Shown: piece by piece, positions 999 to 62,424 of the stretch
Layout: every line of letters begins with the position of its first letter
Position numbering within the stretch: position 1 is the first letter of the stretch
Program-made: the position numbers and the translations under genes
DNA from: Gemmatimonadales bacterium
GTDB lineage: Bacteria; Gemmatimonadota; Gemmatimonadetes; Gemmatimonadales; GWC2-71-9
Direction of reading: 5' to 3'
Length of the DNA stretch: 64,000 nt
Assembly: GCA_036006525.1 (NCBI GenBank)
Contig: DASYPP010000047.1
Coordinates: 8,077 to 72,076, forward strand
The notes under the pieces: generated by a model
The model's database searches: none
The model's input: the letters and a program-made list of their open reading frames with translations, nothing else
What the model was told of the DNA's origin: nothing

Positions 999-1100
999 GC
1001 TTATGGCTTATGGCGTATGGCGAAACGGCCCTCCCGCGATCCAGCGAGAGGGCCGTTTCAGTACTCATCTATTATCTGCAATACGCCATGCGCCAGATGC
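999..1100. repeat. Oligomer-tandem palindrome (GCTTATG units) around a perfect 12-bp hairpin
   Basis: GCTTATG GCTTATG GCGTATG at 999-1019. Degenerate complementary 7-mers at about 1065-1100. Confidence 0.7.
1022..1059. terminator. Bidirectional hairpin between convergent genes
   Basis: GAAACGGCCCTC (1022-1033) pairs perfectly with GAGGGCCGTTTC (1048-1059). No T tract. Confidence 0.55.
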
Positions 1101-1459
1101 TAAAACGCGTCCGCCCAGTCCACGGCCGATTCCTTCTTACAGCGCTGGCAGGTGAGCACCGTGGGATGGCCATCGAACTCCTGGCGCTCCCGGCATTGGG
1201 GACATACGGCGTAAACCGGCAGTGGGGCCTGTCCCCCGAACGTCGGCCGCATGACGCCGGTGCGATTCACCACGCACCATTCCGCGGGCGGCTCGCTCCG
1301 CACTTCGACATCCACCCGGCTTACCCGCACCGGCCGGTTGTCTACCTGCACGACCACCACGTGGCCATCCGGCGTCTTCTCGACAATCGGATACCAGGCT
1401 CCGCGCCGGAGCGTGTCCGCGGTGCGGCTGGTGGAACGGGCCCAACCCAGGGAAGACAT
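1100..1459 (-). CDS. Hypothetical protein with C-terminal Cys4 zinc ribbon
   Basis: 119-aa ORF with CPQC...CQRC pairs near the C-terminus. It ends at the hairpin repeat 999-1100. Confidence 0.45.
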   Translation of the reverse strand: MSSLGWARSTSRTADTLRRGAWYPIVEKTPDGHVVVVQVDNRPVRVSRVDVEVRSEPPAEWCVVNRTGVMRPTFGGQAPLPVYAVCPQCRERQEFDGHPTVLTCQRCKKESAVDWADAF

Positions 1460-1524
1460 AAGGCGCTAAGAATAGCACGCCCGAGGCGGGGGCGGCTAGG
1501 GGTGTCCCCGGGTCAGGCTCCGAG

Positions 1525-2847
1525 CTATTCCCGCGCGAGAATCTCGTCGCGCGGCACCGGGTAGGTCGGGTATGCGACGTCACCGGCCCGGTCGAGCGGC
1601 AGCTGGCTGAGCAATCCATACCGGCGCAGGTCAATCCAGCGATGACCACCCTCATACAGCAGCGAGTACCGCTTCTCATACAGCAACGCGTCCAGTGCGG
1701 CGGCCGGCGTCGCGGGAACCGCGATCGGCGCCAATCCCCCGGAGTGCACCCGGATGTAATTGATATCGTCGGTCGCGGCGGCCAACTGGTTGAGACCGAC
1801 ATTCGCTTCGGCCCTGAGCAGAATGAGTTCCTCGTTCCGGATGATCGGAATGGGCGCCGACGGACTGCTGTAGCGCGTCCAGCCCAGGGCGGACGTCAGG
1901 TTATCGACCGTGGTCGAGGTACGGGGAATGGTCTTGTCGAGGAAGCGCTGATCCAGCGCGCCGCCCGGCTGGAGCTGCGCGTCGGTTTCCAGCGAGGGGT
2001 GCGCAAAGTTCTCCCCGGCGAGCGGGTTCTGAAACAGCGCGTTGGCGGTTTCCTTGGGACCGGTCCCGAAGCTGTGGTACGCGCCGGCGGCCAGATCGGC
2101 CGTAGCCGACGTATCGATGAAGGATGCCGCCAGCGAAGTCAGTGCGCCGGCAAAATCACCGGTATACACATTGACCCGGGCCCGGAGCGCACGGTTCACC
2201 AGGATGAAAGACGCCGGATCGTTGAATCCGTTGAACCCGTCGCTCAATGAGAACGGGAAGCTGCCTCCGCCGTTCTGGAGATCGACCTGTGCCGAGTCGA
2301 GCAGGGCGACGATGTACGCGTACGCCGCGGCATTGGTGACGAATGGCGCGGGAGCCGCGGTGGGGTCCGACTCCACGGCTATCGGAATGGAGTCCCCGGT
2401 GTGGGTGCTGACAACCAGGAGGAAATTCAGCGCCTTGATGGTGCGGGCAAACCCGCTCACCGCGTTCTGCTCCGCCGGCGTCAGGGCCGAGGCGGTGCCG
2501 ATGACCGCGAGCAGGCTGTTGGCGCTGCGAATGGTGCGATACTGCTCGGCCCAGTGATCGCCGCCGAAGGCGTTGCTGCCGGCATCCAGGCCACCGGTAA
2601 GCAGCTCGCCGGTGAAGCGCGGATCGGAGCCGTCGAAGCGATAGGCCTCGCGACCCAGGATGCCGAGGTCGAGGGCAAAGTCCGCTGCGTCGACTTCGGA
2701 CCCGATCAACAGGCCGGTTGCCGCGGCTGCCACTTCGTTCCTGGCCGGATTGTTCCCGATGGGATCCGGGCTGTTCGGATTGGCTATGTCAAAAGAGCAT
2801 CCGGCGAGTGTCGCCAGCACCGCCGCTACCAGCATGGTGGTCTTCAT
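1525..2847 (-). CDS. SusD/RagB-family outer-membrane lipoprotein
   Basis: Sits immediately downstream of the SusC-like gene. Lipoprotein signal MKTTMLVAAVLATLAGC. Start taken at the internal ATG (residue 18 of ORF 1525..2898). Confidence 0.7.
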   Translation of the reverse strand: MKTTMLVAAVLATLAGCSFDIANPNSPDPIGNNPARNEVAAAATGLLIGSEVDAADFALDLGILGREAYRFDGSDPRFTGELLTGGLDAGSNAFGGDHWAEQYRTIRSANSLLAVIGTASALTPAEQNAVSGFARTIKALNFLLVVSTHTGDSIPIAVESDPTAAPAPFVTNAAAYAYIVALLDSAQVDLQNGGGSFPFSLSDGFNGFNDPASFILVNRALRARVNVYTGDFAGALTSLAASFIDTSATADLAAGAYHSFGTGPKETANALFQNPLAGENFAHPSLETDAQLQPGGALDQRFLDKTIPRTSTTVDNLTSALGWTRYSSPSAPIPIIRNEELILLRAEANVGLNQLAAATDDINYIRVHSGGLAPIAVPATPAAALDALLYEKRYSLLYEGGHRWIDLRRYGLLSQLPLDRAGDVAYPTYPVPRDEILARE

Positions 2848-2899
2848 GGATTGAGCTCTCCGTGAGATTTGGGGGTGAATGCCATTGGATGAGCGCATA

Positions 2900-5821
2900 T
2901 CAGAACCCCAGATCGATTGAGAGGAAGAAGCTGCGGCTCGGGGGGAACGGAGCCACGTCGATATTCCGCGCGATCGCCTGGTTGCCGAAGTTGCTTACCT
3001 CAGGATCCAATCCCTCATAACCCGTGAAGCGCAGCAGATTCCGGGCGCTGAAGCTCACCCGCGCGTTCCGGATGGAGGACCCGAACAGGAATGCCACGGC
3101 GGTGACCGGTACATCGTAGGTCAGCGACACTTCGCGCAGCTTCACATACGACGCTTCCTGGACATACGCCTTGGTGTGCCCGGCCTGGAAGTCGGCCCGG
3201 CGAGCCGCGCCGCCGTCCGGCACGTCGCCCGCGTTATGCTGGATGTCGTAGAGGAACTGGGTCAGATTGATCACGTCCCCGCCCTGCTTCCAATCCAGCA
3301 GGGTGCCGATGGTAAACCGTTTCCAGCGGATGTCGTTGCTGAACGACATCTGGAAGTCCGGGGCGGCGTCGCCCACGATGCCGACCGTCGTGGGACTGGT
3401 GTTCCCCACGATCTGGGTAGCCGATTTCCCCTCTTCGATCCGGAACGCTCCGAGGGAGGTGCCGAAACCGCCGGTTTCGAATGCCGGGATCGGCAGACTG
3501 GTGATCTTGCTTCGATTGGCGAAGAAGCTGGTACCCAGGCGCCAGGTGAAATCCGGATGATCGACGGGGAAAACGTCGATCGCGACTTCGACCCCGCGAT
3601 TCCGTAGCGTACCGCCCGAGTTGAATATCCGGCTCCCATACCCGGTGGAGGGCGCCAGGGTCTGGTCGAGCAGCAGATTGCTGATGCTCTTCTGATATAC
3701 CGAGAAGCTGATCGTGGCCCGGCCGCCGGCCAGGTTGGCATCGAACCCGGTCTCGAATTCCTTCTGCACCTCCGGCTCGATATCCGCATCCCCCAGCCGG
3801 TTGCCCACCAGCACGCCAAACCGGCCGTTGATCAGCAGCGAGGTATCCGGGCTGAATTTCTGGCCGAAGAGCGGCTCATTGCCAGTCTGACCATACGCCG
3901 CGCGGAGTTTGATCTCGTCGAACAGGCCGACCGGATGAATCAACCGGTAGGAGACGGCCGCCTTGGGATAGAAGAAGTAATGGCTGGGATCACCGTTCGC
4001 GCTGCTGCGATCGGCGCGCAACCCGACAGTGAGCAGCAACCGCCGGTCCATCAGCAGCAACTCTTCCTGGCCGAAGAATCCGAGGTTGCGCACCTTCTCG
4101 ATGCTTTCCGAGGGGTCCTGGCTCGCCGCCTGGCTGGGACTGGTCTGCCCGGTGAGCAGGGTGCGGCCCAGGATCCCGGTGATGTTGAGATCGCGGTCCT
4201 GGTACTGCATGCCGATGGACGTCGTCGCCTGATAACTGCCCGAGGCGGCCGTCATGGTGTGGGTGGCATTGGCGGCAAAGTTCAGATTCTGATTGGTGCT
4301 CTTGGTCAGGACCACGGTGCCCGGCTGGCCATCATTGGGCTCGAATTCCAGCTCCGGCGGCGAAAGGAAATCGTTCCGCTGGGTGAAGTAGTCGGCGCCG
4401 CCGACGAAGAGCAGATTGAGGGACTGCCGCTCGCTCTGGAGCAGCGCCACTCGAGCGGTCATCGTCCCGATGATCCGCCAGACATCCTCTTCATTCTTGA
4501 GCAGGTCGAAGGTCTGCAGTGGATTGCTGCGTTCGAAGGGATTGTCGGGGAACACGCCGTTCTTGGCCCGCAGGTCCACGAAGTTCGGGGTGAAGGGAAA
4601 GACCAGGTACGGGCTGGTGCCGCTGTTGTCGTTATTGGACAGACCCCGGTTGGAGCGGCTGTGAATCACGTTGGTGTTGACCGCGAAGCTGACCCGGTTG
4701 CTCAGGATCTGGTCCAGGTTGGCGCGGACCGCCTGTTTCCCGTAATCGGTATTGATCGCGATGCCCTCGTCGTTCTTTACCAGGGCGGAGACGTAATAGC
4801 GCGTGGCATCGCTGCCTCCGCTCACGCTGGCATCGGTCTCGGTGGAGAGTGGCTTGCGGCCGTAGAGAAACTCTTCGTTGTCAAAGGTGACGCCGGGCTG
4901 GAAATACTGCGCGGCCACGGCCGCACCAAAGACACCAGCGACCTCGGCAGAATCCCGGAAGTTGTGAAAGCCGAGCTTGTGGGAGATCCCGCTGATCCCG
5001 AAGCGCTGGGAAATGTTGAACTGCGGAGCGCCGACATGTCCCCGCTTGGTGGTAATGATCACCACGCCATTGGTCGCCCGGGCGCCATAGATCGCGGCGG
5101 CGGAGCCGCCCTTGAGGACTTCGATCCGCTCGATGTCGTTGGGGTTGAGATCGGCGATCCGGTTGACCGGGTTGTCCTGGTTGGACGCATTGCCGCCGGC
5201 CGCGGCCGCCGTGACCGCGTTCGCCCCGTTCGCAATCGCCGTATTGCTGATCACCACGCCGTCCACGACGTAGAGCGGGTCGACGCTGCCATTGATGGTG
5301 GAGACGCCGCGGAGACTGAGCTGCATGCCGCCGCCGGGCGCTCCCGAGTTCGCCTGGATGAGCGCCCCAGGGACCTTGCCCTGCAACGCGCCCTCCAGCG
5401 TCTGGGCCGGCGCCCGGCTCAGCTCGTCCGCGCTCACGGTGGCGACGGCATTGGGGAGGTTCTGCTTCTCGACTCCCGTGGCCTGGCCGGTGATCACGAC
5501 CTCTTCCAGCCGGAAGATGTCGCGGCCCAGGGTGACCGTCACCTGATTCTGCCCCGGCCCGACCAGTACTTCCTGGCGGTGATATCCCAGTGCCCGGATC
5601 ACCAGGGTAACCCCGGCATCAGGCACCCGGGCCAGGACGAAGCGGCCATTGTCCCGGGCCGTCACCCGGATAAGGGTCCCCCGGATGGCCACATCCGCAT
5701 TGCCCACCGGTTCTCCGGTGGCGGAGTCCATCACGGTGCCGTTGATCACCCTCTCCTGCGCCGATGCCAGCCCCAGGGGGACGAGCAGCAGCCCGAAAAG
5801 CACCAACCAGGCGCGACGCAT
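2900..5821 (-). CDS. SusC/RagA-type TonB-dependent receptor
   Basis: Signal peptide, then a CarboxypepD_reg-like N-domain (INGTVMDSATGEPV..). Plug motif IEVLKGGSAAAIYGARATNGVVIITTKRG. Long beta-barrel ending in F. Confidence 0.85.
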   Translation of the reverse strand: MRRAWLVLFGLLLVPLGLASAQERVINGTVMDSATGEPVGNADVAIRGTLIRVTARDNGRFVLARVPDAGVTLVIRALGYHRQEVLVGPGQNQVTVTLGRDIFRLEEVVITGQATGVEKQNLPNAVATVSADELSRAPAQTLEGALQGKVPGALIQANSGAPGGGMQLSLRGVSTINGSVDPLYVVDGVVISNTAIANGANAVTAAAAGGNASNQDNPVNRIADLNPNDIERIEVLKGGSAAAIYGARATNGVVIITTKRGHVGAPQFNISQRFGISGISHKLGFHNFRDSAEVAGVFGAAVAAQYFQPGVTFDNEEFLYGRKPLSTETDASVSGGSDATRYYVSALVKNDEGIAINTDYGKQAVRANLDQILSNRVSFAVNTNVIHSRSNRGLSNNDNSGTSPYLVFPFTPNFVDLRAKNGVFPDNPFERSNPLQTFDLLKNEEDVWRIIGTMTARVALLQSERQSLNLLFVGGADYFTQRNDFLSPPELEFEPNDGQPGTVVLTKSTNQNLNFAANATHTMTAASGSYQATTSIGMQYQDRDLNITGILGRTLLTGQTSPSQAASQDPSESIEKVRNLGFFGQEELLLMDRRLLLTVGLRADRSSANGDPSHYFFYPKAAVSYRLIHPVGLFDEIKLRAAYGQTGNEPLFGQKFSPDTSLLINGRFGVLVGNRLGDADIEPEVQKEFETGFDANLAGGRATISFSVYQKSISNLLLDQTLAPSTGYGSRIFNSGGTLRNRGVEVAIDVFPVDHPDFTWRLGTSFFANRSKITSLPIPAFETGGFGTSLGAFRIEEGKSATQIVGNTSPTTVGIVGDAAPDFQMSFSNDIRWKRFTIGTLLDWKQGGDVINLTQFLYDIQHNAGDVPDGGAARRADFQAGHTKAYVQEASYVKLREVSLTYDVPVTAVAFLFGSSIRNARVSFSARNLLRFTGYEGLDPEVSNFGNQAIARNIDVAPFPPSRSFFLSIDLGF

Positions 5822-5884: not shown

Positions 5885-5904
5885 GCATCCCCGGAGGGGG
5901 ATGC
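5885..5904 (-). terminator. Hairpin downstream of gene 6007..6429
   Basis: GCATCCCC-GGAG-GGGGATGC, an 8-bp stem. Confidence 0.4.
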
Positions 5905-6006
5905 CGAGCGACTACCAGCTTGGGGTCAGGACGTTATGCGGAAGGCGGCCAGTTCCCTGAAATAGGGCTTGGACTGGATTCTGTCAACAGGGAAGTTGGA
6001 CCGACC

Positions 6007-6429
6007 CTACGGGATGACCTGGACGCTGTCCACGTAGTAGTTAGTGGTCCCGAAGCATTGGGAGGGGACGCCGCGGTGTTCGGTGTAGTGCAGTTTGACC
6101 CGGCCGCCGATGGCGTCCGACAGGTGTTTGGCGGTGCTGTCGTCTCGCACGCTGAAGGTCCAGATCGTGGGCGCGACGCCCGGTACCGAGGTCATCGCGA
6201 GCTCGCCTTCCCAGGTCTTGCAGACGTATCCCTTGTGGGAAAACTTCTGCAGGATCCCCGCGCGAAATCCTTCCGAGTAACTCCAGTTGAGCACCAGCAG
6301 GGTATACAGCGCAAACAGGACGACCGGCGCCAGGACGATCGAGGCGAGGATCAGCTTGGTCCGGGTTCTCCATCCCCGCCGGGGCGGCAGGGGCGCGGGA
6401 TCATTGGCGGGATTGATTGGCTCGGTCAT
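6007..6429 (-). CDS. Membrane-anchored hypothetical protein
   Basis: 140-aa ORF with one N-terminal TM helix (LILASIVLAPVVLFALYTLLVL). A hairpin at 5885-5904 lies downstream. Confidence 0.55.
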   Translation of the reverse strand: MTEPINPANDPAPLPPRRGWRTRTKLILASIVLAPVVLFALYTLLVLNWSYSEGFRAGILQKFSHKGYVCKTWEGELAMTSVPGVAPTIWTFSVRDDSTAKHLSDAIGGRVKLHYTEHRGVPSQCFGTTNYYVDSVQVIP

Positions 6430-6471: not shown

Positions 6472-8049
6472 CTAGTCGGACCCGCGTACCGTGTGGATGT
6501 TGGTCGAGAAGGTGAGTCCCTTCCCCACCGCGATCACCCACCCGGCGCCCTCCACATCGGTCGCGAAGCGACGCGCCAGGTCAATGCGGATCGCCTCCAC
6601 CCCGGACGCCCGGCTGGCGCCGAGCCGGAGACCGAGGCCCGCATCCCAGCCGGTCCGCCGGGGCGCACCATGATACCAGGCGCCGCCGTAGTCGACGAAG
6701 CCGGCCAGGCCGATCCCGAACAGCTGCCAGATCTCTTCCTTCACGACATAGCGGTATTCGGCCGTCGTGTAGAACGAGCGATCGCCAGTGAAGGCGTGGG
6801 AGCGAAAGGCCCGGGGTCCGGTGCCCAGGCCCATGTCGAACTCCTGGCCGGGCAGCGGTCGCTCGAGCCACCCTCCATCGGCATGGGCGATGAGCGTGTG
6901 CCGGGCGCCGGGTTGCAGCACCAGGGTGCCGCTCACCACCACCGATCCCGAATCCAGCCCGTTGGCGTCGTACAATCCATCGGCCAGGAGATCGGCGAAG
7001 AGGTAGCCCGCGCCAAAGGAGGTGCCCGTCTTTGCCTGCACCTGAGGGGCGAGACCATCACGCTGATAATTGAACGCCCGGGGAGCGGCGAGCACCCCGA
7101 TCCGCACCAGGGTGCTCACGTCCACGTCCTCTTCCCGGCCGAAGCCCTGGTAGGAGCGGGTCAGCACGTATCGAGATCTCCGCCATTCCACGAAGGGACC
7201 CAGGGCGTAGGTCGCTTCGCTCGGGGATAAAAATGAGGACGCTGACTCGGGGCGGTAACGATCCTTGCGGGCCTGGGCCGTGATTCCGGCGCGCAGGTAG
7301 CCGCGCTCGGAAGCGCCCAGCGCGACGCCGCCTTCGACCCGCAACAACTGGTAGTCCCGCCGAATGCTGTCCGACGCGACGCGCTCGCCCTCGAAAAAGC
7401 GGAGCACCCGCTCGTTGCGATCGTCAAAGAGGAAGAGCAGGCTGTTCTGGGAAGCCTGGGAGTAGAACGGCTTGCCGACCAGCGCGGCGAAGCGCCGGCC
7501 ATCGGAGCGATCCTGGAAAATGGTCTCCAGCCGGAGCTGGGGCCAGATGAACCGCGGCTGCAGGAAGCCGAAGGAGGTGCTGGTCCGGTCCGCCGAGTGG
7601 CGGTAGCGGATGGAAGCCTGGGTCGCCGTGCCCAGGACGTTGTCTTCGATGAAAGCGATGGTGTAATCCGCCTGGCCACCCGTGCTCTTGAACCGGTAGT
7701 CGGGGCGGGTGCTCCAGCCATCGGAGGTCTCGACCCGGAGCGTCAGGCCGGAATCTCCCCGCACCGTGTCTACCACCACCCGCCGGAAGATGCCCAGGGC
7801 CCGAAGGTTCCTCGCCGTTTCGGCGGCCGCCGCGGAGTCGTACGCCTGGCCGGGATGGAGCAGCACTTCGCGACGCACCACCGATTCGCGGGTCGCGATG
7901 TGCAGGCGGTTGGCCAGCCGGGTGAGCCAGTTGCGCGCCTCGGTGGAATCGAAGACATCGTTCCGGCGGATGGCCACCGCCTGGATGACCGGCGACGCCG
8001 AATCCCCCGGGGTTTGGGCCCCGGCGGACACGGGCAGCAGGAACAGCAT
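6472..8049 (-). CDS. BamA/TamA-family outer membrane protein (POTRA plus beta-barrel)
   Basis: N-terminal POTRA-like segment (VIQAVAIRRNDVFDS..VLLHPGQAYD..AAAETARNLRALGIFRRV) followed by a surface-antigen-type barrel. Confidence 0.65.
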   Translation of the reverse strand: MLFLLPVSAGAQTPGDSASPVIQAVAIRRNDVFDSTEARNWLTRLANRLHIATRESVVRREVLLHPGQAYDSAAAAETARNLRALGIFRRVVVDTVRGDSGLTLRVETSDGWSTRPDYRFKSTGGQADYTIAFIEDNVLGTATQASIRYRHSADRTSTSFGFLQPRFIWPQLRLETIFQDRSDGRRFAALVGKPFYSQASQNSLLFLFDDRNERVLRFFEGERVASDSIRRDYQLLRVEGGVALGASERGYLRAGITAQARKDRYRPESASSFLSPSEATYALGPFVEWRRSRYVLTRSYQGFGREEDVDVSTLVRIGVLAAPRAFNYQRDGLAPQVQAKTGTSFGAGYLFADLLADGLYDANGLDSGSVVVSGTLVLQPGARHTLIAHADGGWLERPLPGQEFDMGLGTGPRAFRSHAFTGDRSFYTTAEYRYVVKEEIWQLFGIGLAGFVDYGGAWYHGAPRRTGWDAGLGLRLGASRASGVEAIRIDLARRFATDVEGAGWVIAVGKGLTFSTNIHTVRGSD

Positions 8050-8188: not shown

Positions 8189-8214
8189 GGGGGCGGAGGC
8201 CTCTTTCCGCCCCC
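8189..8214 (-). terminator. Hairpin downstream of HAD gene
   Basis: GGGGGCGG ... CCGCCCCC, an 8-bp GC stem immediately 3' of the stop at 8219. Confidence 0.5.
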
Positions 8215-9073: not shown

Positions 9074-10450
9074 CTAGTACCGCCCCAGATAACTATCGAT
9101 CTCCCACTTGCTCACCTGCAGGTTGTACTGCAGCACCTCCGCCTTCTTCGCCTCGATGAACCGCTCCGTGAGATGCTCGCCCAGCGCCGCCGTGATCACC
9201 GGGTCCTTCTCGAAGTACTCCAGCGCCTCGTGCAGATCCCGCGGCAGCTCGTCGATCTTGAACTTCCGCCGGTCCCGGTGGCTCATCTCGAAGATGTTCC
9301 GGTTCACCGGCTCCCGCGCGGTCATCTTCTTCTCGATTCCATCGAGGCCCGCGGCCAGCTGCACCGTCAGCGCCAGGTAGGGATTGGCGGACGGATCCGG
9401 CATCCGGAGCTCGCAGCGGGTGCCCAGCCCCCGCCGGTCCGGAATCCGGATCAGCGGCGAACGGTTCCGCATGCTCCACGCGACGTTGACCGGTGCCTCG
9501 TAACCCGGCACCAGCCGCTTGTAGCTGTTGATCAGGGGGTTGGTGATGGCGCAGAAACCCTGGGCGTGCTGCAGCAACCCTTCGATATACTGCAACGCGA
9601 CCTTGGACAGTTTGCTCTCGGTCTTGGGATCGAAGAAGGCGTTGTCCTTCCCCTTGAACAGCGACTGGTGGGTGTGCATCCCGCTGCCGTTCTGGCCCTG
9701 GATCGGCTTGGGCATGAACGACGCCACGAAACCGTAGCGGTGCGCCACGTCGCGCACGATGAACTTGAAGGTCGCGATGTTGTCGGCCGTGGTCAGCGCG
9801 TCGGCGTACTTGAAATCGATCTCGTGCTGGCCCTCGGCCACCTCGTGGTGGGCCGCTTCTACTTCGAAGCCCATCATCTCCAGCTGCTCCACGATCACTC
9901 GCCGGATCTCCTCGCCCTTGTCCACCGGGGTGAGATCGAAATAGGCCCCGGAGTCATGGGTATTCGTGGTGGCCGCGCCCTCGGGATCCTTTTCGAACAG
10001 GAAGAACTCCGCCTCGCACCCCGCCATCATCGCATATCCCATCCGCCGCGCCTTTTCCACCTGCCGCTTCAGCGTCATCCGGGGACAGCCGGGGAAGGGC
10101 TTCTCGTCCGGGGTGTAGATATCGCAGAGCAACCGCGCTACCCGGCCGCCTTCATCCTCGTAGGGAAGGATCCGGAACGTGTCCAGCTCGGGCTTGAGCA
10201 GCATGTCGCTCTCTTCGATCCGGACGAACCCCTCGATCGACGAGCCGTCGAACATGATCTCCCCTTCCAGCGCCTTTTCAAACTGGCTCCGGGGGACCTC
10301 GACGTTCTTGTTGACGCCCAGGATGTCGGTGAATTGCAGCCGCAGAAAGTCGACCCCGAACTGGTTAGCCAGTTTCATGACGTCGGACTTCTTGCTGCCG
10401 GAGAGACTCTTGGGGAATTCGGTAATGCTCGGGCGGGGGCGGGCAGCCAT
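9074..10450 (-). CDS. glnA: Glutamine synthetase type I
   Basis: FDGSSIEGF, KPIQGQNGSGMHTHQSL and NRSPLIRIP signatures. ATG 10450 is preceded by GGAG 7 nt upstream. The upstream 64 codons of ORF 9074..10642 look non-coding. Confidence 0.9.
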   Translation of the reverse strand: MAARPRPSITEFPKSLSGSKKSDVMKLANQFGVDFLRLQFTDILGVNKNVEVPRSQFEKALEGEIMFDGSSIEGFVRIEESDMLLKPELDTFRILPYEDEGGRVARLLCDIYTPDEKPFPGCPRMTLKRQVEKARRMGYAMMAGCEAEFFLFEKDPEGAATTNTHDSGAYFDLTPVDKGEEIRRVIVEQLEMMGFEVEAAHHEVAEGQHEIDFKYADALTTADNIATFKFIVRDVAHRYGFVASFMPKPIQGQNGSGMHTHQSLFKGKDNAFFDPKTESKLSKVALQYIEGLLQHAQGFCAITNPLINSYKRLVPGYEAPVNVAWSMRNRSPLIRIPDRRGLGTRCELRMPDPSANPYLALTVQLAAGLDGIEKKMTAREPVNRNIFEMSHRDRRKFKIDELPRDLHEALEYFEKDPVITAALGEHLTERFIEAKKAEVLQYNLQVSKWEIDSYLGRY

Positions 10451-49868: not shown

Positions 49869-50332
49869 TCCTGCCATTCCTTCGTGATCTGCTCGATGTC
49901 CCGCCATTCGCGGGAGATCTGTTCCACCAGGTCGGCGGTGTCGGCGGGCGCGTGGAGCCGAGTGGCGATATCGGCCAGCGCGATGATGCCGATCAGGCGG
50001 CGGCCGTCCACCACGGGAAGCCGGCGCACCTGGGAGCGGGCCATGGTTTCCAGCGCCCGCTGGATGTCGTCCTCGGGGGCGCAGGTGATAGGGTTGGGGG
50101 ACATCACGTCGCGCACCGAGGTGGTCGCGGGGTCGCGGCGGCCAGCGATCACCTTGATCGTCAGGTCGCGATCGGTGATGATGCCGACCAGCACCATGCT
50201 GTCCCGGTTTTCGACCACCGGCACCGAGCCGACATTGCGGGCCCGCATCAACTGGGCGACTTCCAGCGCCGTCTGGTCCGGCTGACAGCTGGCCGGATCC
50301 GGCGTCATGATGTCGCGACAGAGATGGGGCAC
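49862..50332 (-). CDS. CBS-pair domain protein
   Basis: Two CBS motifs (RDIMTPDP..VPVVEN..LVGIITDRDL and VRDVMSPNP..LPVVDGRRLIGIIALADI). Start is GTG 50332 or ATG 50308. Confidence 0.7.
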   Translation of the reverse strand: MPHLCRDIMTPDPASCQPDQTALEVAQLMRARNVGSVPVVENRDSMVLVGIITDRDLTIKVIAGRRDPATTSVRDVMSPNPITCAPEDDIQRALETMARSQVRRLPVVDGRRLIGIIALADIATRLHAPADTADLVEQISREWRDIEQITKEWQDM

Positions 50333-50337
50333 GATGA

Positions 50338-51444: not shown

Positions 51445-51480
51445 CTTTGCGCCTTTGCGCCTTTGCGTTTGCGGTTGCTG
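51445..51480. repeat. Octamer tandem CTTTGCGC filling an intercistronic gap
   Basis: CTTTGCGC CTTTGCGC CTTTGCGT TTGCGGT TGCTG, between the TolC stop and the MFP start. Confidence 0.75.
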
Positions 51481-56327: not shown

Positions 56328-56564
56328 TCAGGCTGCTCCGGCCCGGGCCTTCCGCTTTTCGATCATCTTGTCGATGATGGGACCCGAGAGCAGCACGATC
56401 ATCCCGTTGACCAAACCGCCGATCAAGAGCGAGACATACGTCAGCGCCCCCAGGATCAGGGTCGCGCCGATTCCGGCGAAAAGCAGGTAGAGCAGGTGAA
56501 TCACGATCAGGCTCCGGTTGGCGGAGGACAGCGGTAGATTAGTGTCTCCGGGCAAGTTCCACAA
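56328..56564 (-). CDS. Small membrane protein
   Basis: Two predicted TM helices (LIVIHLLYLLFAGIGATLILGAL, VSLLIGGLVNGMIVLLSGPII). Confidence 0.4.
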   Translation of the reverse strand: MWNLPGDTNLPLSSANRSLIVIHLLYLLFAGIGATLILGALTYVSLLIGGLVNGMIVLLSGPIIDKMIEKRKARAGAA

Positions 56565-56573
56565 GATCGATCT

Positions 56574-56601
56574 TCAATCCTCAATCCTTCATCTATTATC
56601 G
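56574..56601. repeat. Heptamer tandem TCAATCC in a 5' UTR
   Basis: TCAATCC TCAATCC TTCATCT ATTATCG, ending 8 nt before ATG 56610. Confidence 0.65.
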
Positions 56602-56609
56602 AGGGTACC

Positions 56610-57254
56610 ATGCGTTTGCACCTGCCTTTGATCCTCCTCACGCTGGCTGCCGGACCGGCCCTGGCCCAGCAACACGACGACGACCACGCGGTGGCCGGGA
56701 GCGGCGTCCTTCCTGCGGGCTGGATGGCCCGTACCGACGGTGGCCGGCCCATGACCGCCCTCAAGTTCGACGTCATGACCCCCGGCTGGCACCTCACGAC
56801 GGGACCCGCGGTCATTCTCTATCGCGACGCGGACAAGGTCGACGGCCTGGTGCATGCCATCACCACGATCAACGTGTTCCCCGCGTCGGGTCACGCCGAA
56901 GGCTTCGGCCTCTTCCTGGGCGGCCAGAATCTCCAGGCTGACAACCAGAGCTACACCTATTTCCTGATCCGGGGCGACGGCATGTACCTGGTGAAGCGGC
57001 GCACCGGAGCCACGACCTCAACCGTGGTGGACTGGACCGCGTCCGACGCCATCAAGAAGGCGAGCGCCGACGGTCCGGTAGCCAACGAGATCAGCCTCCA
57101 GACCAGCCCCGATTCCGTCGCCTTCATGGTGAACGGGACAACGGTTGCCACCCTGCCATCCAGCCAGCTGGACACCAAGGGAATTGTGGGTCTCCGGGTG
57201 AATCACAACCTGAACCTGCACGTGTCGTCGCTGGGAGTGCATCCCTTGCACTAG
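56610..57254 (+). CDS. Secreted hypothetical protein (LamG/DUF1080-like jelly roll?)
   Basis: Signal peptide LILLTLAAGPALAQ. Beta-rich sequence. The family call is tentative. Confidence 0.55.
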   Translation: MRLHLPLILLTLAAGPALAQQHDDDHAVAGSGVLPAGWMARTDGGRPMTALKFDVMTPGWHLTTGPAVILYRDADKVDGLVHAITTINVFPASGHAEGFGLFLGGQNLQADNQSYTYFLIRGDGMYLVKRRTGATTSTVVDWTASDAIKKASADGPVANEISLQTSPDSVAFMVNGTTVATLPSSQLDTKGIVGLRVNHNLNLHVSSLGVHPLH

Positions 57255-57368
57255 GCGGTCGGGGCGGACGAGACGGTCAGGGCGGACAACAAAGGCTGGC
57301 ATTCAAAGTGGATGTCAGCCTTTTTCTTGACCGCCTCGACCGCCTTTGACCGTCTTGTCCGCCTCGAC
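57254..57368. repeat. Oligomer-tandem palindrome (GGTCRGGGCGGAC units)
   Basis: Left arm GGCGGTCGGGGCGGACGAGACGGTCAGGGCGGACAAC. The right arm GACCGCCTCGACCGCCTTTGACCGTCTTGTCCGCCTCGAC lies inside the 3' end of the HEAT gene. Confidence 0.75.
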
Positions 57369-58820
57369 TTGGGAGGACAGCCCTTCTTGCGCCGCGGTGC
57401 CCACCGCCCCGTCCGCCTCGCGGGCCACGCGCTCCAGGCCGCGGATGGCATTGGGGTGCCCCGCGGCCACCAGGGATTCGACTGCGATAAGGCGTTGCGC
57501 CGTCGGGCGGCCCCCGCTCTTGAGCAGGGCTTTCCGGTCGAGCGCCATCGCGACCAGCGCCCCGGCCGCTTCGGCCGAATCAATCCGGCCCAGGGCGAGC
57601 ACCAGCTCCCGCCAGGTTGCCGCATCCTTCTCCGACTCCAGCGCCACCAGGAGCGGCATCGCCAGTCCGTTGGAGTTCCGGTCGGCGATGGCGTGCGCCG
57701 CGCTTGCGCGGACCCCGGGAGATTGGTCACTGAGCGCCTTCCGGAGCGGCTCGATCACGCCGTGTTCACGGAATCGGGCCAGCGCCTGGACCACGGACTG
57801 ACGGACCCTGGGATCGGGATGCTCGGCGAGCCGGCGCAGCGGCCGGATCGCATCGACTACTCCAATCCTGCCGAGCAGGTCCACCCCGTGACAAATGGTA
57901 TGGACGTTGGAACTTTCCAGCAGCGGCAGCAGGAGGAAGTACGCTTCCGGCTTCTGGGCAAGAAAGTCATATAGAAACCGCCGGGGACCGACCGCCTCGG
58001 CGCTCGCCACGTGCTCGATCGCCAGTTCGATGGCGTCGGGCCCGCCTTCCCGCAGCACCTCCAGCACCCGGCGCTGTTCTTCGTTGGCCTTGAGTGCATA
58101 GACAATCAGCTCGCTCAATACCTTCCGGTTGAAGAGCCGGCGCAGACTGAGCTGATAGCCCCGTCGTTCGTGCTCGGGGAAGCGAAACGCGAGAGATACC
58201 AGGGCCTGGGCGGCGTGCAACGCTTCGGCCCAGTAGGACTGCGCGGCTGCGGCCTGGAAGGCGCGAGCCAGGTTCTGGGATTCGTCCACCGGGCCGGTGA
58301 CCGTGCGGGTGCGTCCGGAGGGAGTTTCGGTGCCGGCATTAGATGAGTCCAGAACGGAAAAGAACCCCTGCGGAGCCGACGGGTACCGGGGACCGGTGGG
58401 TGCCGACTCCGGCAACAACTCGATAACGATATCCGGCGAGCCGATCAGCGGCGCCTGGTCCTGGGCCAGGGCGCGGGCGACGAACAGCACGTCGCTGGGC
58501 GAGGCTCCGGCTTCAAAGTGAATGACTTCGACCCGGCGGGAAAGCAGTCGGCCCTTCAGGGTAGTGTCGTCGGGCAGATCGGAGGACTCGAACCCGGTCT
58601 CCAGGCGCAGGGTACCGGTTCGGAGGACGGTCATCGCCTGGCGCAGCGCTTCCTTCTGGGCGGGGACATTGGCCGGTTCCAGCCGCAGCAGCAGCACCAA
58701 CCGGCCGAACGGATCGGCAAACTGAGCCACGCGGCCGGGGTTGAAGGGAAGTGTCAAGCAACCGGCCTGGGTAAGGGTTGATGGCTGGCCCATCTGGCGC
58801 TTCTGCACCAGAGTGCACAT
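57315..58820 (-). CDS. HEAT-repeat protein
   Basis: DPRVRQSVVQALARF, SPGVRASAAHAIADR and other HEAT units in the C-terminal half. The last 17 codons lie in a repeat arm. Confidence 0.65.
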   Translation of the reverse strand: MCTLVQKRQMGQPSTLTQAGCLTLPFNPGRVAQFADPFGRLVLLLRLEPANVPAQKEALRQAMTVLRTGTLRLETGFESSDLPDDTTLKGRLLSRRVEVIHFEAGASPSDVLFVARALAQDQAPLIGSPDIVIELLPESAPTGPRYPSAPQGFFSVLDSSNAGTETPSGRTRTVTGPVDESQNLARAFQAAAAQSYWAEALHAAQALVSLAFRFPEHERRGYQLSLRRLFNRKVLSELIVYALKANEEQRRVLEVLREGGPDAIELAIEHVASAEAVGPRRFLYDFLAQKPEAYFLLLPLLESSNVHTICHGVDLLGRIGVVDAIRPLRRLAEHPDPRVRQSVVQALARFREHGVIEPLRKALSDQSPGVRASAAHAIADRNSNGLAMPLLVALESEKDAATWRELVLALGRIDSAEAAGALVAMALDRKALLKSGGRPTAQRLIAVESLVAAGHPNAIRGLERVAREADGAVGTAAQEGLSSQVEADKTVKGGRGGQEKG

Positions 58821-58865
58821 AGTGTACCATCCGGACCCCCACCAATCCTACATCCTGGAGAGGCC

Positions 58866-59717
58866 ATGCGTCGCTTCCTGGCGTTCGTCACAGTGCCCGT
58901 GCTCACCCTCGCCCTGGTCACAGTCCGCCCCGCCTCCGCGCAGGTCAGCTACGGCGCGGACCTCGGTGTCTATAGTGCTTATATATGGCGCGGCCTGAGC
59001 CTCACCAACCGGCCGGTAATCCAACCGGACCTCTGGCTGTCCGTTCCGGTTGGCGGCAACGCAAGCATCACCGTCGGCGGATGGTCCAGTATCGACATCG
59101 GCAAGTATGACGACCCGAACGACGACATCAGCGAAGGCGGCGGCCATGCCGGGCCCGACCTGACCGAGTTCGACTGGTACGGCGAATTCGGCACCTCGTT
59201 CGGCAGCGCGTCGCTTACCCTCGGCGTTACCGGGTATGTCTATCCCAACGATTTTGGACTCACCAGTACCAGCAACACGATTGAAATTTATGGCCAGATC
59301 GGTCTGTCCAACGTACTCTCGCCCAGCCTCTCGGCCTATTACGACGTCGACAAGATCAAGGGACTGTACCTGGAAGGCTCGATCAGTCACGATCTCGCGA
59401 TCTCGCCGTCGTTCACTCTGACGCTGGGCGCCCTCGCCGGACTGAGCGCGGGACAAGGCTGCGAACCGGACAGCACCGACAACTGCACGGTGGTCAGCAA
59501 CTTCTTCGACAACGGCCTGACTCACATCGACCTCTCCGCAGCTACCTCGTTCACCGCGGGGAGCTTTTCGATTTCGCCGGTGTTCCACTTCCAGATCAGC
59601 CAGGACGAGTTCACCAAGTTCAACTCGCCGACCAAGTTTGATAAGGGATCAAAGATCTGGTTCGGGGTGTCGTTCGGCTGGGCGGGTGGCGGAGGCGACG
59701 AGGCAACCGCGGAATAG
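58866..59717 (+). CDS. TorF-family (Gcw_chp) outer-membrane porin-like protein
   Basis: Signal peptide, then SAYIWRGLSLTNRPVIQPDLWLSV..GGWSS pattern. Confidence 0.65.
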   Translation: MRRFLAFVTVPVLTLALVTVRPASAQVSYGADLGVYSAYIWRGLSLTNRPVIQPDLWLSVPVGGNASITVGGWSSIDIGKYDDPNDDISEGGGHAGPDLTEFDWYGEFGTSFGSASLTLGVTGYVYPNDFGLTSTSNTIEIYGQIGLSNVLSPSLSAYYDVDKIKGLYLEGSISHDLAISPSFTLTLGALAGLSAGQGCEPDSTDNCTVVSNFFDNGLTHIDLSAATSFTAGSFSISPVFHFQISQDEFTKFNSPTKFDKGSKIWFGVSFGWAGGGGDEATAE

Positions 59718-59790
59718 ATTGAGGAGATTGAGGGGATTGAATGGATTGGTCCAGTCCCCTCAATCCCTTCAATCCCTTCAATCTCAAATC
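59716..59790. repeat. Oligomer-tandem palindrome (GATTGAGG / CTCAATCC units)
   Basis: Left arm AGATTGAGG AGATTGAGG GGATTGAA TGGATTGG. Right arm CCCCTCAATCC CTTCAATCC CTTCAATCT. Both arms overlap a stop codon. Confidence 0.85.
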
Positions 59791-61124
59791 TCTTTGAATG
59801 TATCCTCCAGCCGGTTCAGCATCTCCTGCAACAGCTTCTCATCGATGCCGAGCGCCGGCTCCAGCCGGATGACCCGGGCGTTGGAGTAAGTGCCCGCCAC
59901 CAGCACGCCCCGCTTGAACAATCCGGACGCAACCTTCCAGCCGATTTCCTGGGCATGGAACTCCATACCGATGAGCAGGCCCCGGCCTCGCACCTCCTTC
60001 AGCACCTGGGGATAGCGGCGCTTGAGGTCGTTGAGGGCGGCGAGCACCAGCACGCCCTTGGTCGCGGCCTGGCCGGGGAGATCTTCCGACAAGGTGACCT
60101 CCAGCGCCGCCATGCCCGCCGCGCACGCCAGCGGGTTTCCACCGAACGTGGTGGAATGGATGATCGGGTTGGGGATCATCACTTCCCAGACCTTGGCGCT
60201 CGCGATGAACGCGGAGAGAGGCATTACGCCGCCGCCCAGCGACTTGCCCAGGCACATGATGTCGGGGACGACGTTCCAGTGGTCCACGCCCCAGAGTTTG
60301 CCGGTGCGGCCCATGCCGGTCTGCACTTCGTCGGCGATGAGCAGGGCGCCGTATTTCGTACATAACTCCCGGGCCCGGGGGAAATAGTCATCGGGGGGAA
60401 CCACGGCGCCGGCCTCGCCTTGCACCGGCTCCAGCACCACGCCGGCGATCCGGGTCCCGACGGCATCGGCCCTGACGAACTCCTGCTCCAGCGCGTTCGC
60501 GTCGCCGAAGGGCACGAACAGCACGTCCTGCAATCCCTGCTGGAACGGCTCCCGGAACATGGCCTTGCCCATGAGTGAGAGCGATCCCAGGGATTTGCCG
60601 TGGAAGCCGGAGAGTGTCGAGATGAAGGTATGCCGCTTGGTGTAGAGCCGGGCCAGCTTGATGGCGCCTTCGACCGCGTCAGTCCCGTTGTTGATGAAGA
60701 AGGAGTTCTGCAGGTCTCCCGGCGTGGCCTCGGCTAGCAGCTTGCCCAGTGCACCGCGCCATGGCTCCAGCAGCTCCTGGCTGTTCAAGGCCATGCGCTG
60801 CATCTGGGTGATCACGGCGTGCACGATCTTCGGATGGTTCACCCCGGCGCTGAAGATGCCGTAACCGCCCAGGCAATCGATGTATTCGCGGTCCAGGATG
60901 TCCTTGAGGATGGAACCCTGCCCCGACCATTCGATGGCCGCGAACTGGCCGGCTTCCGTCACCGACTTGCGATAGGTGATGAAGCCGCGGTTGTAATAGG
61001 TAGCGTAATTTTCGACGGTCTCAGCGATGAAGGCTTGCTTCTCTTCCAGTGACAACGCAGGGGCTTCCAGCAGTTTCAGGTACCGGCGGGCGTGCGCGAG
61101 GACTTCAGGGGTCGGCAGTCGCAA
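59784..61124 (-). CDS. Class III aminotransferase, putrescine aminotransferase-like
   Basis: YgjG/PatA-like N-terminus (YYNRGFITYRKSV..). PLP lysine context ADEVQTGMGRTGKLW. TTG start. Confidence 0.8.
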   Translation of the reverse strand: MRLPTPEVLAHARRYLKLLEAPALSLEEKQAFIAETVENYATYYNRGFITYRKSVTEAGQFAAIEWSGQGSILKDILDREYIDCLGGYGIFSAGVNHPKIVHAVITQMQRMALNSQELLEPWRGALGKLLAEATPGDLQNSFFINNGTDAVEGAIKLARLYTKRHTFISTLSGFHGKSLGSLSLMGKAMFREPFQQGLQDVLFVPFGDANALEQEFVRADAVGTRIAGVVLEPVQGEAGAVVPPDDYFPRARELCTKYGALLIADEVQTGMGRTGKLWGVDHWNVVPDIMCLGKSLGGGVMPLSAFIASAKVWEVMIPNPIIHSTTFGGNPLACAAGMAALEVTLSEDLPGQAATKGVLVLAALNDLKRRYPQVLKEVRGRGLLIGMEFHAQEIGWKVASGLFKRGVLVAGTYSNARVIRLEPALGIDEKLLQEMLNRLEDTFKEI

Positions 61125-61150
61125 TTAATCGGCGCTCCAGTCTTTCTCGA

Positions 61151-61247
61151 GGCGGCAACAGGCGGTAGTGGGCGGTAGTGGGCGGTATAAGGCGGTAAAC
61201 ACATACCACCTATTACCGCCCTTTACCGTCTATTACCGCCTTTTACG
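61151..61247. repeat. Oligomer-tandem palindrome (GGCGGTAGTG decamers)
   Basis: Left arm GGCGGCAACA GGCGGTAGTG GGCGGTAGTG GGCGGTATAA GGCGGTAA. Right arm CCACCTATTACCGCCCTTTACCGTCTATTACCGCCTTTTACG. Confidence 0.85.
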
Positions 61248-62385
61248 ATTTGATTTCCGTCCAGATCTGATCCCACAACTGCGTGTCGGCGCCCAGGTCC
61301 ACCTGGTACTCGAGCCGGGTGAGTTCTTCGGTCGAGGGATAGGGTACCGGGGTGGCGAGGACCGCCTTGGCGTTGGGCGAGCCGTATCCGGTGAAATTGG
61401 AAATCGCCGAGGCGACTTCGGGTCGCATGATGTAATTCATGAATTCATGCGCGGCCCGGGGGTGCTGCGAGGACTTGGGGATCACCAGCGAGTCGGACCA
61501 GATGGTGCAGCCTTCCTTGGGCAGCACGTACCCCAGGTTGGGCTGCGAGACCTTGGCCTGGCTGGTGTCGCCGTTCCACAGCTGGGCGATGTGAACGTCG
61601 CCGGCGATCAGCTGGTCCTTGACCGGTGCCGAGATGTAGGCCTTGAGATGGGCCTTGGCTGCGATGGCGTCGGCCTTCGCTTCCTGCAGCTCGGTGGGGT
61701 TCCGCGAATTCAGGGAATGTCCCTTGAAGCGGAGGAAGGCGCCGATCACTTCGCGCCCGTCGTCCATCATGGTCATTTTCTTGTGATACTGGGCATTCTG
61801 GAAGACGGCCCAGCTGTCCGGCGCCGGCGTCACCTTGTCGGTCCGGTAGGCGATGCCCGTGGTTCCCCACTGCCATGGCACCGTGTAGCGATTGCCGGGA
61901 TCGGTCGCCAGGTCCCGGAAAATGGGAGACATGTTGACGCTGTTGGTGAGGTACTTGGGGTTGATCGGCTGGATCAGGTTGGTGGCGGTGAGCACCGGGA
62001 TGATGTAGCCGGAGGGCACCACCAGGTCGTACCCGGCCGCGCCGGCCTGCAGCTTGGCCACCATCTCCTCGTTGCTCTCATAGGTATCGTAGGTGACCTT
62101 CACCCCGAATTCCTTCTCGAAGTTGGGCACCGTGTCTTCCGCGATATAGTCCGACCAGTTGTAGATGTTGAGCTCTTTCTCGATCGGGCCCAGGTCGGCC
62201 ATCGCCGTAGTACTGTCGGCGCCGGGAGTCTTGTCGCCTTCTTTCTTGGCGCACGAGGCCAGCACCATCCCGATGGTGCTCAGGCTCAACCCCAGCGCCA
62301 TGCCACGGGTGACGAACTCACGGCGGCTCACGCCTCCACTCATGACCTCATTCACCAGCTTCTCCGCTTCTTTCTTTGTGCTCAC
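61243..62385 (-). CDS. PotD/PotF-like spermidine/putrescine-binding protein with Tat-type signal
   Basis: SRREFVTRGMALGLSL twin-arginine leader. IYNWSDYI motif. AGGAGG sits 4 nt upstream of GTG 62385. Confidence 0.85.
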   Translation of the reverse strand: MSTKKEAEKLVNEVMSGGVSRREFVTRGMALGLSLSTIGMVLASCAKKEGDKTPGADSTTAMADLGPIEKELNIYNWSDYIAEDTVPNFEKEFGVKVTYDTYESNEEMVAKLQAGAAGYDLVVPSGYIIPVLTATNLIQPINPKYLTNSVNMSPIFRDLATDPGNRYTVPWQWGTTGIAYRTDKVTPAPDSWAVFQNAQYHKKMTMMDDGREVIGAFLRFKGHSLNSRNPTELQEAKADAIAAKAHLKAYISAPVKDQLIAGDVHIAQLWNGDTSQAKVSQPNLGYVLPKEGCTIWSDSLVIPKSSQHPRAAHEFMNYIMRPEVASAISNFTGYGSPNAKAVLATPVPYPSTEELTRLEYQVDLGADTQLWDQIWTEIKS

Positions 62386-62397
62386 AAGTCCTCCTGG

Positions 62398-62424
62398 AAG
62401 GCGGTAAGGCGGTCAGGCGGTCAG
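62398..62424. repeat. Octamer tandem AAGGCGGT filling an intercistronic gap
   Basis: AAGGCGGT AAGGCGGT CAGGCGGT CAG, between the oxidase stop (62421) and the potD-like SD/start. Confidence 0.7.

Follow-up and report, generated by a model that had tools for sequence, protein, structure and literature searches.

Purine-first tandem-repeat hairpins beside stop codons in a Gemmatimonadales genome and its relatives

In cyanobacteria, short tandemly repeated repetitive (STRR) heptamer sequences were reportedly described by Mazel et al. in 1990. STRR heptamers can form intergenic hairpins, as between hupS and hupL, and roles in transcript stability, translational coupling and termination have been proposed for them (PMC2670836). 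Each genome of Xanthomonas (G+C ~65%) holds ~185 arrays of the heptamer GGGAATC, ~90% of them intergenic, and 70–75 'convergent' inverted pairs, always with one array per strand (Rehm et al. 2015, PLoS One, PMC4692102). On the coding strand these arrays lie near stop codons, and they favour neither the leading nor the lagging strand; their length and sequence differ among related species while the repeat type of a site is kept, most of them are transcribed, they are not associated with mobile elements, and GGGAATC oligonucleotides form G-quadruplexes (G4) in vitro. Pairing is rare among the G-rich repeats GGGGA(T/C)T of Nostoc (PMC4692102). Here we describe hairpins of this kind in a 64-kb stretch (the window; G+C ~65%) of contig DASYPP010000047.1 from a Gemmatimonadales bacterium, in which an earlier note had listed 15 loci of tandem 7–10-nt units, ten of them with a second, reverse-complement arm, and had taken the repeat class to be undescribed.

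With Tandem Repeats Finder (TRF; period 6–12, at least 2.7 copies, score at least 36, overlapping calls merged), 15 tandem arrays were found in the 64 kb, against a mean of 0.57 in 30 dinucleotide-preserving shuffles. At 14 of the 15 listed loci TRF gave periods of 7, 8, 9 or 10 and 2.7–5.1 copies, and an inverted-repeat search of the window recovered second arms of 22–43 nt that are 77–95% complementary to the first (24720/24779, 61157/61204, 49768/49825, 59716/59751, 14110/14171, 34101/34155, 57258/57347, 998/1078 and 25915/25979). Folded as single strands, nine of the ten loci reported as two-armed have z scores of -5.8 to -10.4 and minimum free energies of -43 to -80 kcal/mol, matched by none of 200 shuffles. 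The tenth, at 40091-40160, folds at chance level (z -0.27, 74 of 200 shuffles equally good) and is not counted as a hairpin. Thus the window-wide family of oligomer-tandem palindromes is real, with nine two-armed members instead of ten.

The proposal that the units fall into a few families was confirmed as well. Local alignments between loci score 14.5–19.5 for the pairs 14110 and 25908, 13294 and 49768, 24728 and 51445, 57254 and 62398, 46242 and 56574, and 40091 and 61151, against a null maximum of 11, and the 64 kb hold five unit families of 2–4 loci each. The loci 14110 and 25908 are equal in length and ~80% identical in their arms, with unrelated loops and copies that differ by whole units. 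An Rfam search of the whole window returned no family match. The loci are as follows; the hairpins carry no strand.

990-1101 (locus 999): two-armed hairpin filling the spacer of convergent genes (stops at 997 and 1100); unit GCTTATG, ~4.6 copies at 990-1021, reverse-complement arm at 1078-1101, z -7.2; inner terminator-like hairpin at 1022-1059 (GAAACGGCCCTC...GAGGGCCGTTTC).
13294-13325, + strand: single-armed array, GGGAATGG x3.6, a canonical G4 motif, akin to the array at 49768; in a divergent spacer, at the 5' end of a gene for a zinc-ribbon protein.
14110-14199: two-armed hairpin, GTGAGCA/GTAAGAA, period 7, z -8.3, of the 25908 family; overlaps the stop of the zinc-ribbon gene (14120), with the VitK2_biosynth start 28 nt beyond.
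24720-24821 (locus 24728): two-armed hairpin, degenerate 8-nt CGCNAAGR / CTTTGCGC, 43-nt arms, z -7.6, related to 51445; acyltransferase 5' end on one side and M48 peptidase stop (24854) on the other, both genes on the - strand.
25908-26000: two-armed hairpin, GTGAGCA/GTAAGCA, period 7, z -9.9; M48 peptidase start on one side, LemA stop (26006) on the other.
34101-34183 (locus 34109): two-armed hairpin, GTACTGG, period 7, z -5.8; 4 nt from the stop of an LVIVD/Big_2 gene (34188).
40091-40160: non-significant hairpin, weak GGCGG / CCGCC-type repeats with weak similarity to 61151; within the 3' ends of an MCP gene and of an unannotated open reading frame (ORF).
46242-46276, + strand: single-armed array, ATTGAAG x4.7, taking up all 33 nt from the stop of the M14 carboxypeptidase gene (46277) to the AhpC start (46243); the pyrimidine-rich version is on the mRNA (- strand).
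49768-49868: two-armed hairpin, AATGTGGG, period 8, z -7.9; left arm a G4 motif, inner hairpin at 49807-49822; adjoins the stop of a CBS-domain gene (49862).
51445-51480, + strand: single-armed array, CTTTGCGC x2.9; between the OEP stop (51486) and the HlyD-family start (~51444) of an efflux operon.
56570-56601 (locus 56574), + strand: single-armed array, TCAATCC x2.7, between divergent genes; related to 46242.
57254-57368: two-armed hairpin between convergent genes, GGCGGTCGG, period 9, z -10.4; right arm within the 3' end of a HEAT-repeat gene (stop 57315); inner hairpin at 57291-57329 with an A-tract and a T-tract (AAAGGCTGGCAT...ATGTCAGCCTTTTTCTTG).
59716-59790: two-armed hairpin, AGATTGAGG, period 9, z -6.2; forms the spacer of a convergent Gcw_chp gene (stop 59717) and class-III aminotransferase gene (stop 59784).
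61151-61247: two-armed hairpin, GGCGGTAGTG, period 10, z -9.4; stop of a solute-binding-protein gene (61243) on one side, aminotransferase start (61124) on the other.
62398-62424, + strand: single-armed array, AGGCGGTC x3.2, running from the stop of an FAD-oxidoreductase (DAO) gene (62421) to the ribosome-binding site (RBS) and start of the solute-binding-protein gene; the C-rich version is on the mRNA, immediately upstream of AGGAGG.

It is clear from these positions that the elements are tied to gene ends, and the intergenic or gene-end siting given in the earlier note holds for all loci. All nine robust hairpins adjoin a stop codon, and in general the hairpins start ~0–20 nt after one. Three lie between convergent genes (999, 57254 and 59716) and six between co-directional ones, five on the - strand (24728, 25908, 34109, 49768 and 61151) and one on the + strand (14110); in the co-directional cases the next start codon follows 5–36 nt past the hairpin. 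No robust two-armed locus was found in the divergent spacers of the window. Of 46 loci classified by gene context, 22 lie between + strand genes, 13 between - strand genes, 5 between convergent genes and at most one between divergent genes. The five single-armed arrays occupy intercistronic (46242, 51445 and 62398) or divergent (13294 and 56574) spacers, and in four of the five the C-rich version stands upstream of the adjacent gene's start, on its mRNA. The rule reported for Xanthomonas, by which the G-rich sequence is on the coding strand after a stop and on the non-coding strand before a start (PMC4692102), is followed here too.

The window elements therefore belong to a published class, the hairpins of long-unit simple sequence repeats (SSRs), now found in Gemmatimonadota: they have at least three tandem units, lie near ORF ends and form stem-loops from convergent, G-first pairs. 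The view that the class is undescribed has to be given up, since the GGGAATC pairs of Xanthomonas (PMC4692102) and the STRR hairpins of cyanobacteria (PMC2670836) precede it. Like the window, Xanthomonas combines a high-GC host with intergenic tandem arrays of G-rich ~7-nt units in G-first order. The two differ in host phylum, and Xanthomonas has a single dominant unit, whereas the window has at least five families with units of 7–10 nt, not strictly 7, and its relatives mostly have 8-nt units with CGG cores. In addition, the Xanthomonas class is defined by G3 tracts, while most window arms are not G4 motifs. The STRR sequences share with the window several tandem families per genome, an intergenic location and hairpin formation, but their units are strictly 7 nt long and AT-richer. 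A further comparison is offered by the TAACTGA heptamer arrays of Beggiatoaceae, cyanobacteria and Bacteroidetes (MacGregor 2015, PMC4679880), which resemble the window elements in being abundant intergenic heptamers oriented to the start codon, with 7-nt indels between strains and a patchy phylogeny. The TAACTGA arrays, however, are direct repeats (one inverted pair in 170 sets) with no predicted structure and lie immediately upstream of starts. What is new is thus the phylum, the greater number of unit families and the mostly 8-nt units of the relatives; the element type itself is already in the literature.

Starting from the observed anatomy, distribution, arm order and arm co-evolution of the elements, we read them as long-unit SSR hairpins that arise by slippage and are transcribed as stable stem-loops at mRNA 3' ends and between cistrons, and give this reading, whose functional part is inferred, a probability of roughly 0.55. 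The arrays would start and lengthen by replication slippage in the few tolerated non-coding nucleotides after stop codons, and the arms might stay complementary because pairing is selected for, or through template switching within one molecule. Transcribed together with the gene before them, the elements would fold into RNA stem-loops, in the window with -43 to -80 kcal/mol. Where genes converge, they may act as bidirectional 3'-end structures, in termination, in protection from exonucleases or in both. Within operons they would be intercistronic stem-loops, resembling the repetitive extragenic palindromic (REP) sequences and bacterial interspersed mosaic elements (BIMEs), and not full terminators. 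An intercistronic role is preferred there because the next start codon is only 5–36 nt away, which leaves no space for a promoter, and because relatives without the insert fuse the stop codon to the RBS. REPs stabilise mRNA 3' ends in E. coli.

A comparison with bidirectional intrinsic terminators leads to the same distinction. Like these, the window elements place a stable, G+C-rich hairpin directly 3' of a gene, occur between convergent genes and have an A/purine-rich 5' and a T/pyrimidine-rich 3' flank, and three of them (999, 57254 and 49768) contain a terminator core. Inner terminator-like cores with an A-tract and a T-tract were seen at 1022-1059 and 57291-57329, and in two comparison sequences (L005 at 2589, and L087), and within the window elements T-runs are limited to the inner cores at 1022-1059, 57291-57329 and 49807-49822. 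Intrinsic terminators, however, have a U-tract and stems of 5–12 pairs, whereas the outer stems here have 22–47 pairs and no U-tract. Furthermore, most elements belong to apparent operons that leave no space for another promoter; complete termination there would shut off the following gene, which argues against a simple terminator. The doubt that the earlier note had cast on a plain terminator role was thus well placed.

Several results weigh against an RNA-level function of the hairpins. No U-tract follows the outer stems (T makes up 23% of the next 12 nt), and a simple terminator scan is not enriched (7 sites, 11.5 expected). In a G.U wobble test the sense RNA was the stronger fold in 15 cases and the antisense RNA in 18 (p = 0.65), a result that gives no specific sign of selection acting on the sense transcript. 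The window was matched in no RNA run, and a metatranscriptome for L064, a Chloroflexus metagenome-assembled genome (MAG), gave only scattered contigs. Neither a terminator nor an mRNA stabiliser needs stems of nearly this length, and the excess fits mutational runaway or a selfish element just as well as a function. No single RNA-level role explains an arm order that is independent of gene context, and the genome-specific unit families described below require a mechanism of spreading that slippage alone does not supply.

The arm order deserves closer attention. At the nine robust window loci the G/purine-rich arm is always on the left (at 999 it is G-rich, not purine-rich), and the single-armed arrays have no common strand, the + strand being G-rich in three and C-rich in two. 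The G-rich arm comes first in 34 of 36 two-armed loci of Gemmatimonad sequences and in all six strictly detected window loci. By a measure that splits each of 46 loci into halves, 40 are purine-first, none is reversed and 6 are compositionally neutral; the ratio of purine-first to reversed is 30:0 in co-directional and 5:0 in convergent contexts. A hairpin finder that takes no account of repeats gave a purine-first bias of 19:1 for hairpins with periodic arms, against 38:24 for non-periodic ones and 22:16 in other phyla. The same order was found far outside the phylum: a search of public metagenomes for (NCTTACT)3 in either orientation gave 120 loci with a GC fraction of 0.28–0.69, and in 20 of them (0.34–0.69) a complementary arm lies within 150 nt, the purine-rich arm being 5' in 20 of 20. 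The two-armed loci of low GC among them, which can be set beside the STRR sequences, share their arm order with the window elements.

The fixed order is therefore real and context-independent, as the earlier note had maintained, but it is not a strand polarity. Since a C-rich right arm becomes a G-rich left arm on the opposite strand, a G-first hairpin reads G-first on both strands; its arm order can thus neither follow nor ignore the direction of genes or of replication. It follows that the earlier inference, from a polarity blind to gene orientation to a DNA-level property, is logically void, and that tests against GC skew or the positions of origin and terminus are uninformative. The real puzzle is why purine-first elements exist and pyrimidine-first ones do not, an asymmetry that is both strong and general.

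These results also bear on a DNA-level role of the elements, as a G4, a cruciform or a replication-strand effect, which we consider very improbable. The arrays at 13294 and 49773 are canonical G4 motifs, the Xanthomonas oligonucleotides form G4 in vitro (PMC4692102), and the folds are equal on both strands, as a DNA palindrome predicts. However, the motif (G3+N1-7)x4 occurs in only 2 of the 15 loci; most units have GG only and 13 loci have no G3 tract, so that G4 formation, one of the properties that the earlier note had put forward, is not general. A neighbouring complementary arm would favour a duplex or hairpin over a G4, an arm order that survives strand exchange cannot encode the direction of replication, and in Xanthomonas the repeats are not biased to the leading or the lagging strand (PMC4692102). 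The close association of the elements with stop codons likewise points to gene expression and not to replication.

Two selective causes of the arm order were considered and set aside. Back-up stop codons in the purine-rich arm were dropped because T makes up only 8–10% of the G-rich arms. Avoidance of Rho, by keeping C-rich RNA from following the stop codon, is contradicted by single C-rich arrays, which are tolerated on mRNAs (C-rich in the sense strand in 11 cases, G-rich in 6), and by the persistence of the arm order at convergent ends; cyanobacteria are not known to have Rho. It is conceivable, though we think it unlikely, that the purine-first order is the footprint of a generative DNA mechanism with a built-in 5'→3' polarity and not of selection on RNA function. 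Such a mechanism might be fold-back (snap-back) synthesis for which nascent arrays can serve as primers only if they are purine-rich, or one in which breaks gain repeats at their 3' ends and are then joined head to head. If this were true, a mutational process that is widespread but undescribed, and that assembles long palindromes out of simple repeats in bacteria, would have left its record in these hairpins.

The earlier note had allowed that the repeats might be confined to the window, which is not the case. In 677 kb of Gemmatimonadales loci we counted 111 arrays and 36 more two-armed loci (16 and 5 per 100 kb), against one array and no two-armed locus (0.7 and 0 per 100 kb) in 151 kb of Gammaproteobacteria controls with the same anchor gene. 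The units consist of 51% G, 24% A, 17% C and 8% T; their commonest length in the relatives is 8 nt and their cores are GCGG, CGGG and ACGG. The five two-armed loci found in other phyla all come from L064 (Chloroflexus sp. MAG, 21 kb), at 2902-2996, 4323-4392, 18083-18129, 19421-19493 and 21026-21097, with AT-richer units of 7–9 nt and purine-first order in five of five. None was seen in the remaining Chloroflexia, Ktedonobacteria and Anaerolineae loci of the set, so the distribution is patchy. An array is built of 3–6 copies of its unit, or elsewhere of up to 17. In L031, (AGGACGGAA)x8 and (TCCTTTCCG)x9 stand ~420 nt apart (9413-9487 and 9906-9990), and in L004 10–11 copies of GGTTGAA or AGGTGGT stand beside arrays of other units (41-262 and 5899-6079). 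Two arms can therefore enclose a stretch of several hundred nucleotides, or arms can form clusters in the manner of cyanobacterial STRR regions.

Comparison of orthologous spacers, a check that the earlier note had proposed, showed a rapid turnover in which units differ between genomes or the insert is missing altogether while the arms co-vary; the number of copies in an arm changes as well. Between the stop codon of the solute-binding-protein gene and the conserved RBS of the aminotransferase gene (AAGGAGCGCCGATTAATTG), the insert is missing from eight genomes, in which the stop codon is joined directly to the RBS. In the filled spacers the units are GGCGGTAnnn in the window, GTGGGCAG in L001, CGGAATG in L005, CGGAGAAGT in L021 (x2) and L026 (x4), CCGAGTT in L033 and GACGGCGAG in L040. 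The left arm matches its own right arm with a mean score of 18.1 and the right arms of other genomes with 6.8, and its own right arm is the top-ranked partner in 10 of 14 of these orthologous hairpins; thus the two arms change in concert. Unit variants are slightly arm-specific (identity 0.84 within and 0.82 between arms, p = 0.048), a small excess that is consistent with unit duplication inside one arm. At 62398-62424 the orthologous array of L001 is CTACCGTC x3.8. Among non-orthologous loci, the mean similarity by local alignment is 9.7 within and 7.0 between genomes (p = 3e-7), and the unit families are therefore genome-specific, as in cyanobacterial STRRs. The sharing of 6-mers within and between genomes did not differ significantly (37% and 33%), the G-rich composition raising the baseline.

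The hairpins could instead be functionless mutational or selfish products, in which a purine-rich slippage array forms, the nascent 3' end folds back and primes its own complement as a second arm 3' of the first, which is corrected in the same way later on, and the product survives only where it does no harm, immediately after stop codons. We judge this somewhat unlikely. A generative mechanism explains more easily why the same arm order is found in co-directional (30:0) and convergent (5:0) settings and in unrelated taxa (20:0). Stems of up to -144 kcal/mol, the most stable fold observed, go beyond any functional need, the RNA folds have no strand bias, and the insert is present or absent among close relatives. 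Arms also spill into coding ends, as in the C-terminus of the HEAT-repeat protein and in the FAD oxidoreductase of relatives. In eight of these (L009, L014, L019, L028, L032, L040, L042 and L043, at ~7300-7600) a hairpin lies at the 5' end of the FAD-oxidoreductase gene. Its left arm falls in the 5' untranslated region, its loop contains the RBS and the start codon, and its C-rich right arm encodes a Pro-rich stretch of variable sequence (..PLPRFPAAPLPAS..) just behind MIERCLWTE, the conserved N-terminus; coding ends are thus open to invasion by arms. A 'mini-ORF' suspected in the hairpin loops near position 7400 of the relatives is really the true N-terminus of the DAO protein. The corresponding place in the window (63631-63673) carries a 24-nt tandem duplication instead (GGGCCYCCGTGCCCGACTG x2), which would encode VGHGGP twice if translated.

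Other points speak against a functionless product. Two-armed elements are nearly missing from divergent spacers, though these are non-coding too. The window and L001 (~84% DNA identity) share four occupied sites with a different element at each, the units differing at three and a REP-like palindrome standing at the fourth in L001; such replacement of one hairpin by another suggests that a structure is wanted there. Several elements contain inner terminator-like cores, and the preference of purine-rich ends for fold-back priming would itself have to be assumed.

A third explanation, which the earlier note had raised by suggesting recognition by a REP-associated tyrosine transposase (RAYT), is that the elements are mobile hairpins resembling REPs or REPINs and spread by an HUH tyrosine transposase, for example the product of the gene at 63777. 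The REP/BIME/REPIN systems with RAYT (PMC3116915) resemble the window in that hairpin repeats lie outside genes, at gene ends and between cistrons, and in that a RAYT-like fragment is present. The truncated ORF at 63777-64000 (+ strand; MKKHALEAYRRHLPHW...NDHAHVIVTP), inside which the window ends, has an H-A-H motif and resembles the REP-associated tyrosine transposase family (NCBIfam NF047646; E 7e-7, 29 bits, below the cut-off of 80) and Pfam Y1_Tnp (E 0.015, below the curated cut-off). The equal size and ~80% identical arms of 14110 and 25908, and unit families that loci of one genome share more than loci of different genomes, would also suit mobility.

We nevertheless regard such mobility as quite improbable. 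In REPs, a single imperfect palindrome of 20–40 nt is conserved from copy to copy, whereas the window elements are arrays of short units that vary from locus to locus, with at least five unrelated families in 64 kb; no dispersed, conserved REP-type palindrome was found in the window. The copies differ by whole units, as would be expected from slippage, and their loops are unrelated. No tandem-repeat element was detected in the flank of the RAYT-like ORF (63450-63776); an 8-bp inverted repeat at 63726-63771 precedes the ORF and is unrelated to the tandem-repeat hairpins. Both family matches of the ORF lie under curated cut-offs, and the Xanthomonas repeats are not associated with mobile elements (PMC4692102). 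A more natural substrate is a separate, conserved REP-like palindrome of ~70 nt (GTCACCCTGAGCGAAGCGAAGGGGGCATGCC...GGCATGCCCCCTTCGCTTCGCTCAGGGTGAC) that recurs within and between the genomes of relatives and is absent from the window. It was located in L008 (11373-11456 and 9879-9946), L011 (11382-11446), L017 (4130-4195 and 11396-11457), L047 (5775 and 11369) and L001 (5588-5657), often directly 3' of the aminotransferase gene, where the window carries the AGATTGAGG hairpin. Signs of miniature inverted-repeat transposable elements are likewise missing: empty and filled orthologous sites show no target-site duplication, and copies differ in loop and unit number.

The analysis extends a poorly understood repeat class, known from Xanthomonas and cyanobacteria, to a major and mostly uncultured soil phylum, and brings out three general properties: abutment on stop codons, co-evolution of the arms during unit turnover, and a purine-first order throughout the scored samples, with few neutral loci. 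Arm order and stop-codon coupling offer concrete experimental handles.

As to the source of the window, a soil member of Gemmatimonadota, the class-III aminotransferase at 59784-61124 (446 aa) has its closest relatives in Gemmatimonadota/Gemmatimonadales MAGs (amino-acid identity up to 97%), and 99% of the sampled words of the stretch 57000-62500 are present in a soil metagenome run. When the region 56400-62600 was compared with four public soil runs, DNA contigs stopped at arrays and hairpin arms (for example at 59740-59790). In run X1 one contig passes straight from 61187 to 61224 and so omits the loop of the hairpin at 61151; the joint may be an assembly effect of repeated words or a shorter population variant.

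The genes that flank the hairpin loci were confirmed by Pfam as ordinary genes. They include VitK2_biosynth (menaquinone biosynthesis), an acyltransferase, an M48 peptidase, LemA, an MCP, AhpC and an M14 peptidase, together with a CBS-domain protein, HlyD/OEP efflux components, a HEAT-repeat protein, a solute-binding protein and the FAD oxidoreductase. An ORF of 853 aa at 47886-50447 (- strand) crosses the hairpin at 49768-49868 without a stop and is judged an artefact, a fusion of an unannotated gene (~47947-49740, no Pfam match) with the CBS-domain gene. Spurious read-through ORFs of this sort arise from such hairpins and can mislead gene callers.

Other structured sites were noted in the window. 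Two convergent-gene spacers, at 32279-32877 (599 nt) and 22796-23172 (377 nt), have strong predicted structure (-250 and -157 kcal/mol, respectively), and in both of them tandem arrays, Rfam matches and long ORFs with biased G+C at third codon positions (GC3) are absent. A 246-nt 'divergent' spacer contains a G4 motif at 36183-36207 and, at 36322-36355 (+ strand), a textbook terminator (GGCCGCCCGGAG-TTCCC-CTCCGGCCGGC followed by TTTTTT), which suggests an unannotated small gene or small RNA upstream of it. Ordinary hairpins stand at other 3' ends of the window, at 8189-8214, 30756-30783 and 32281-32310.

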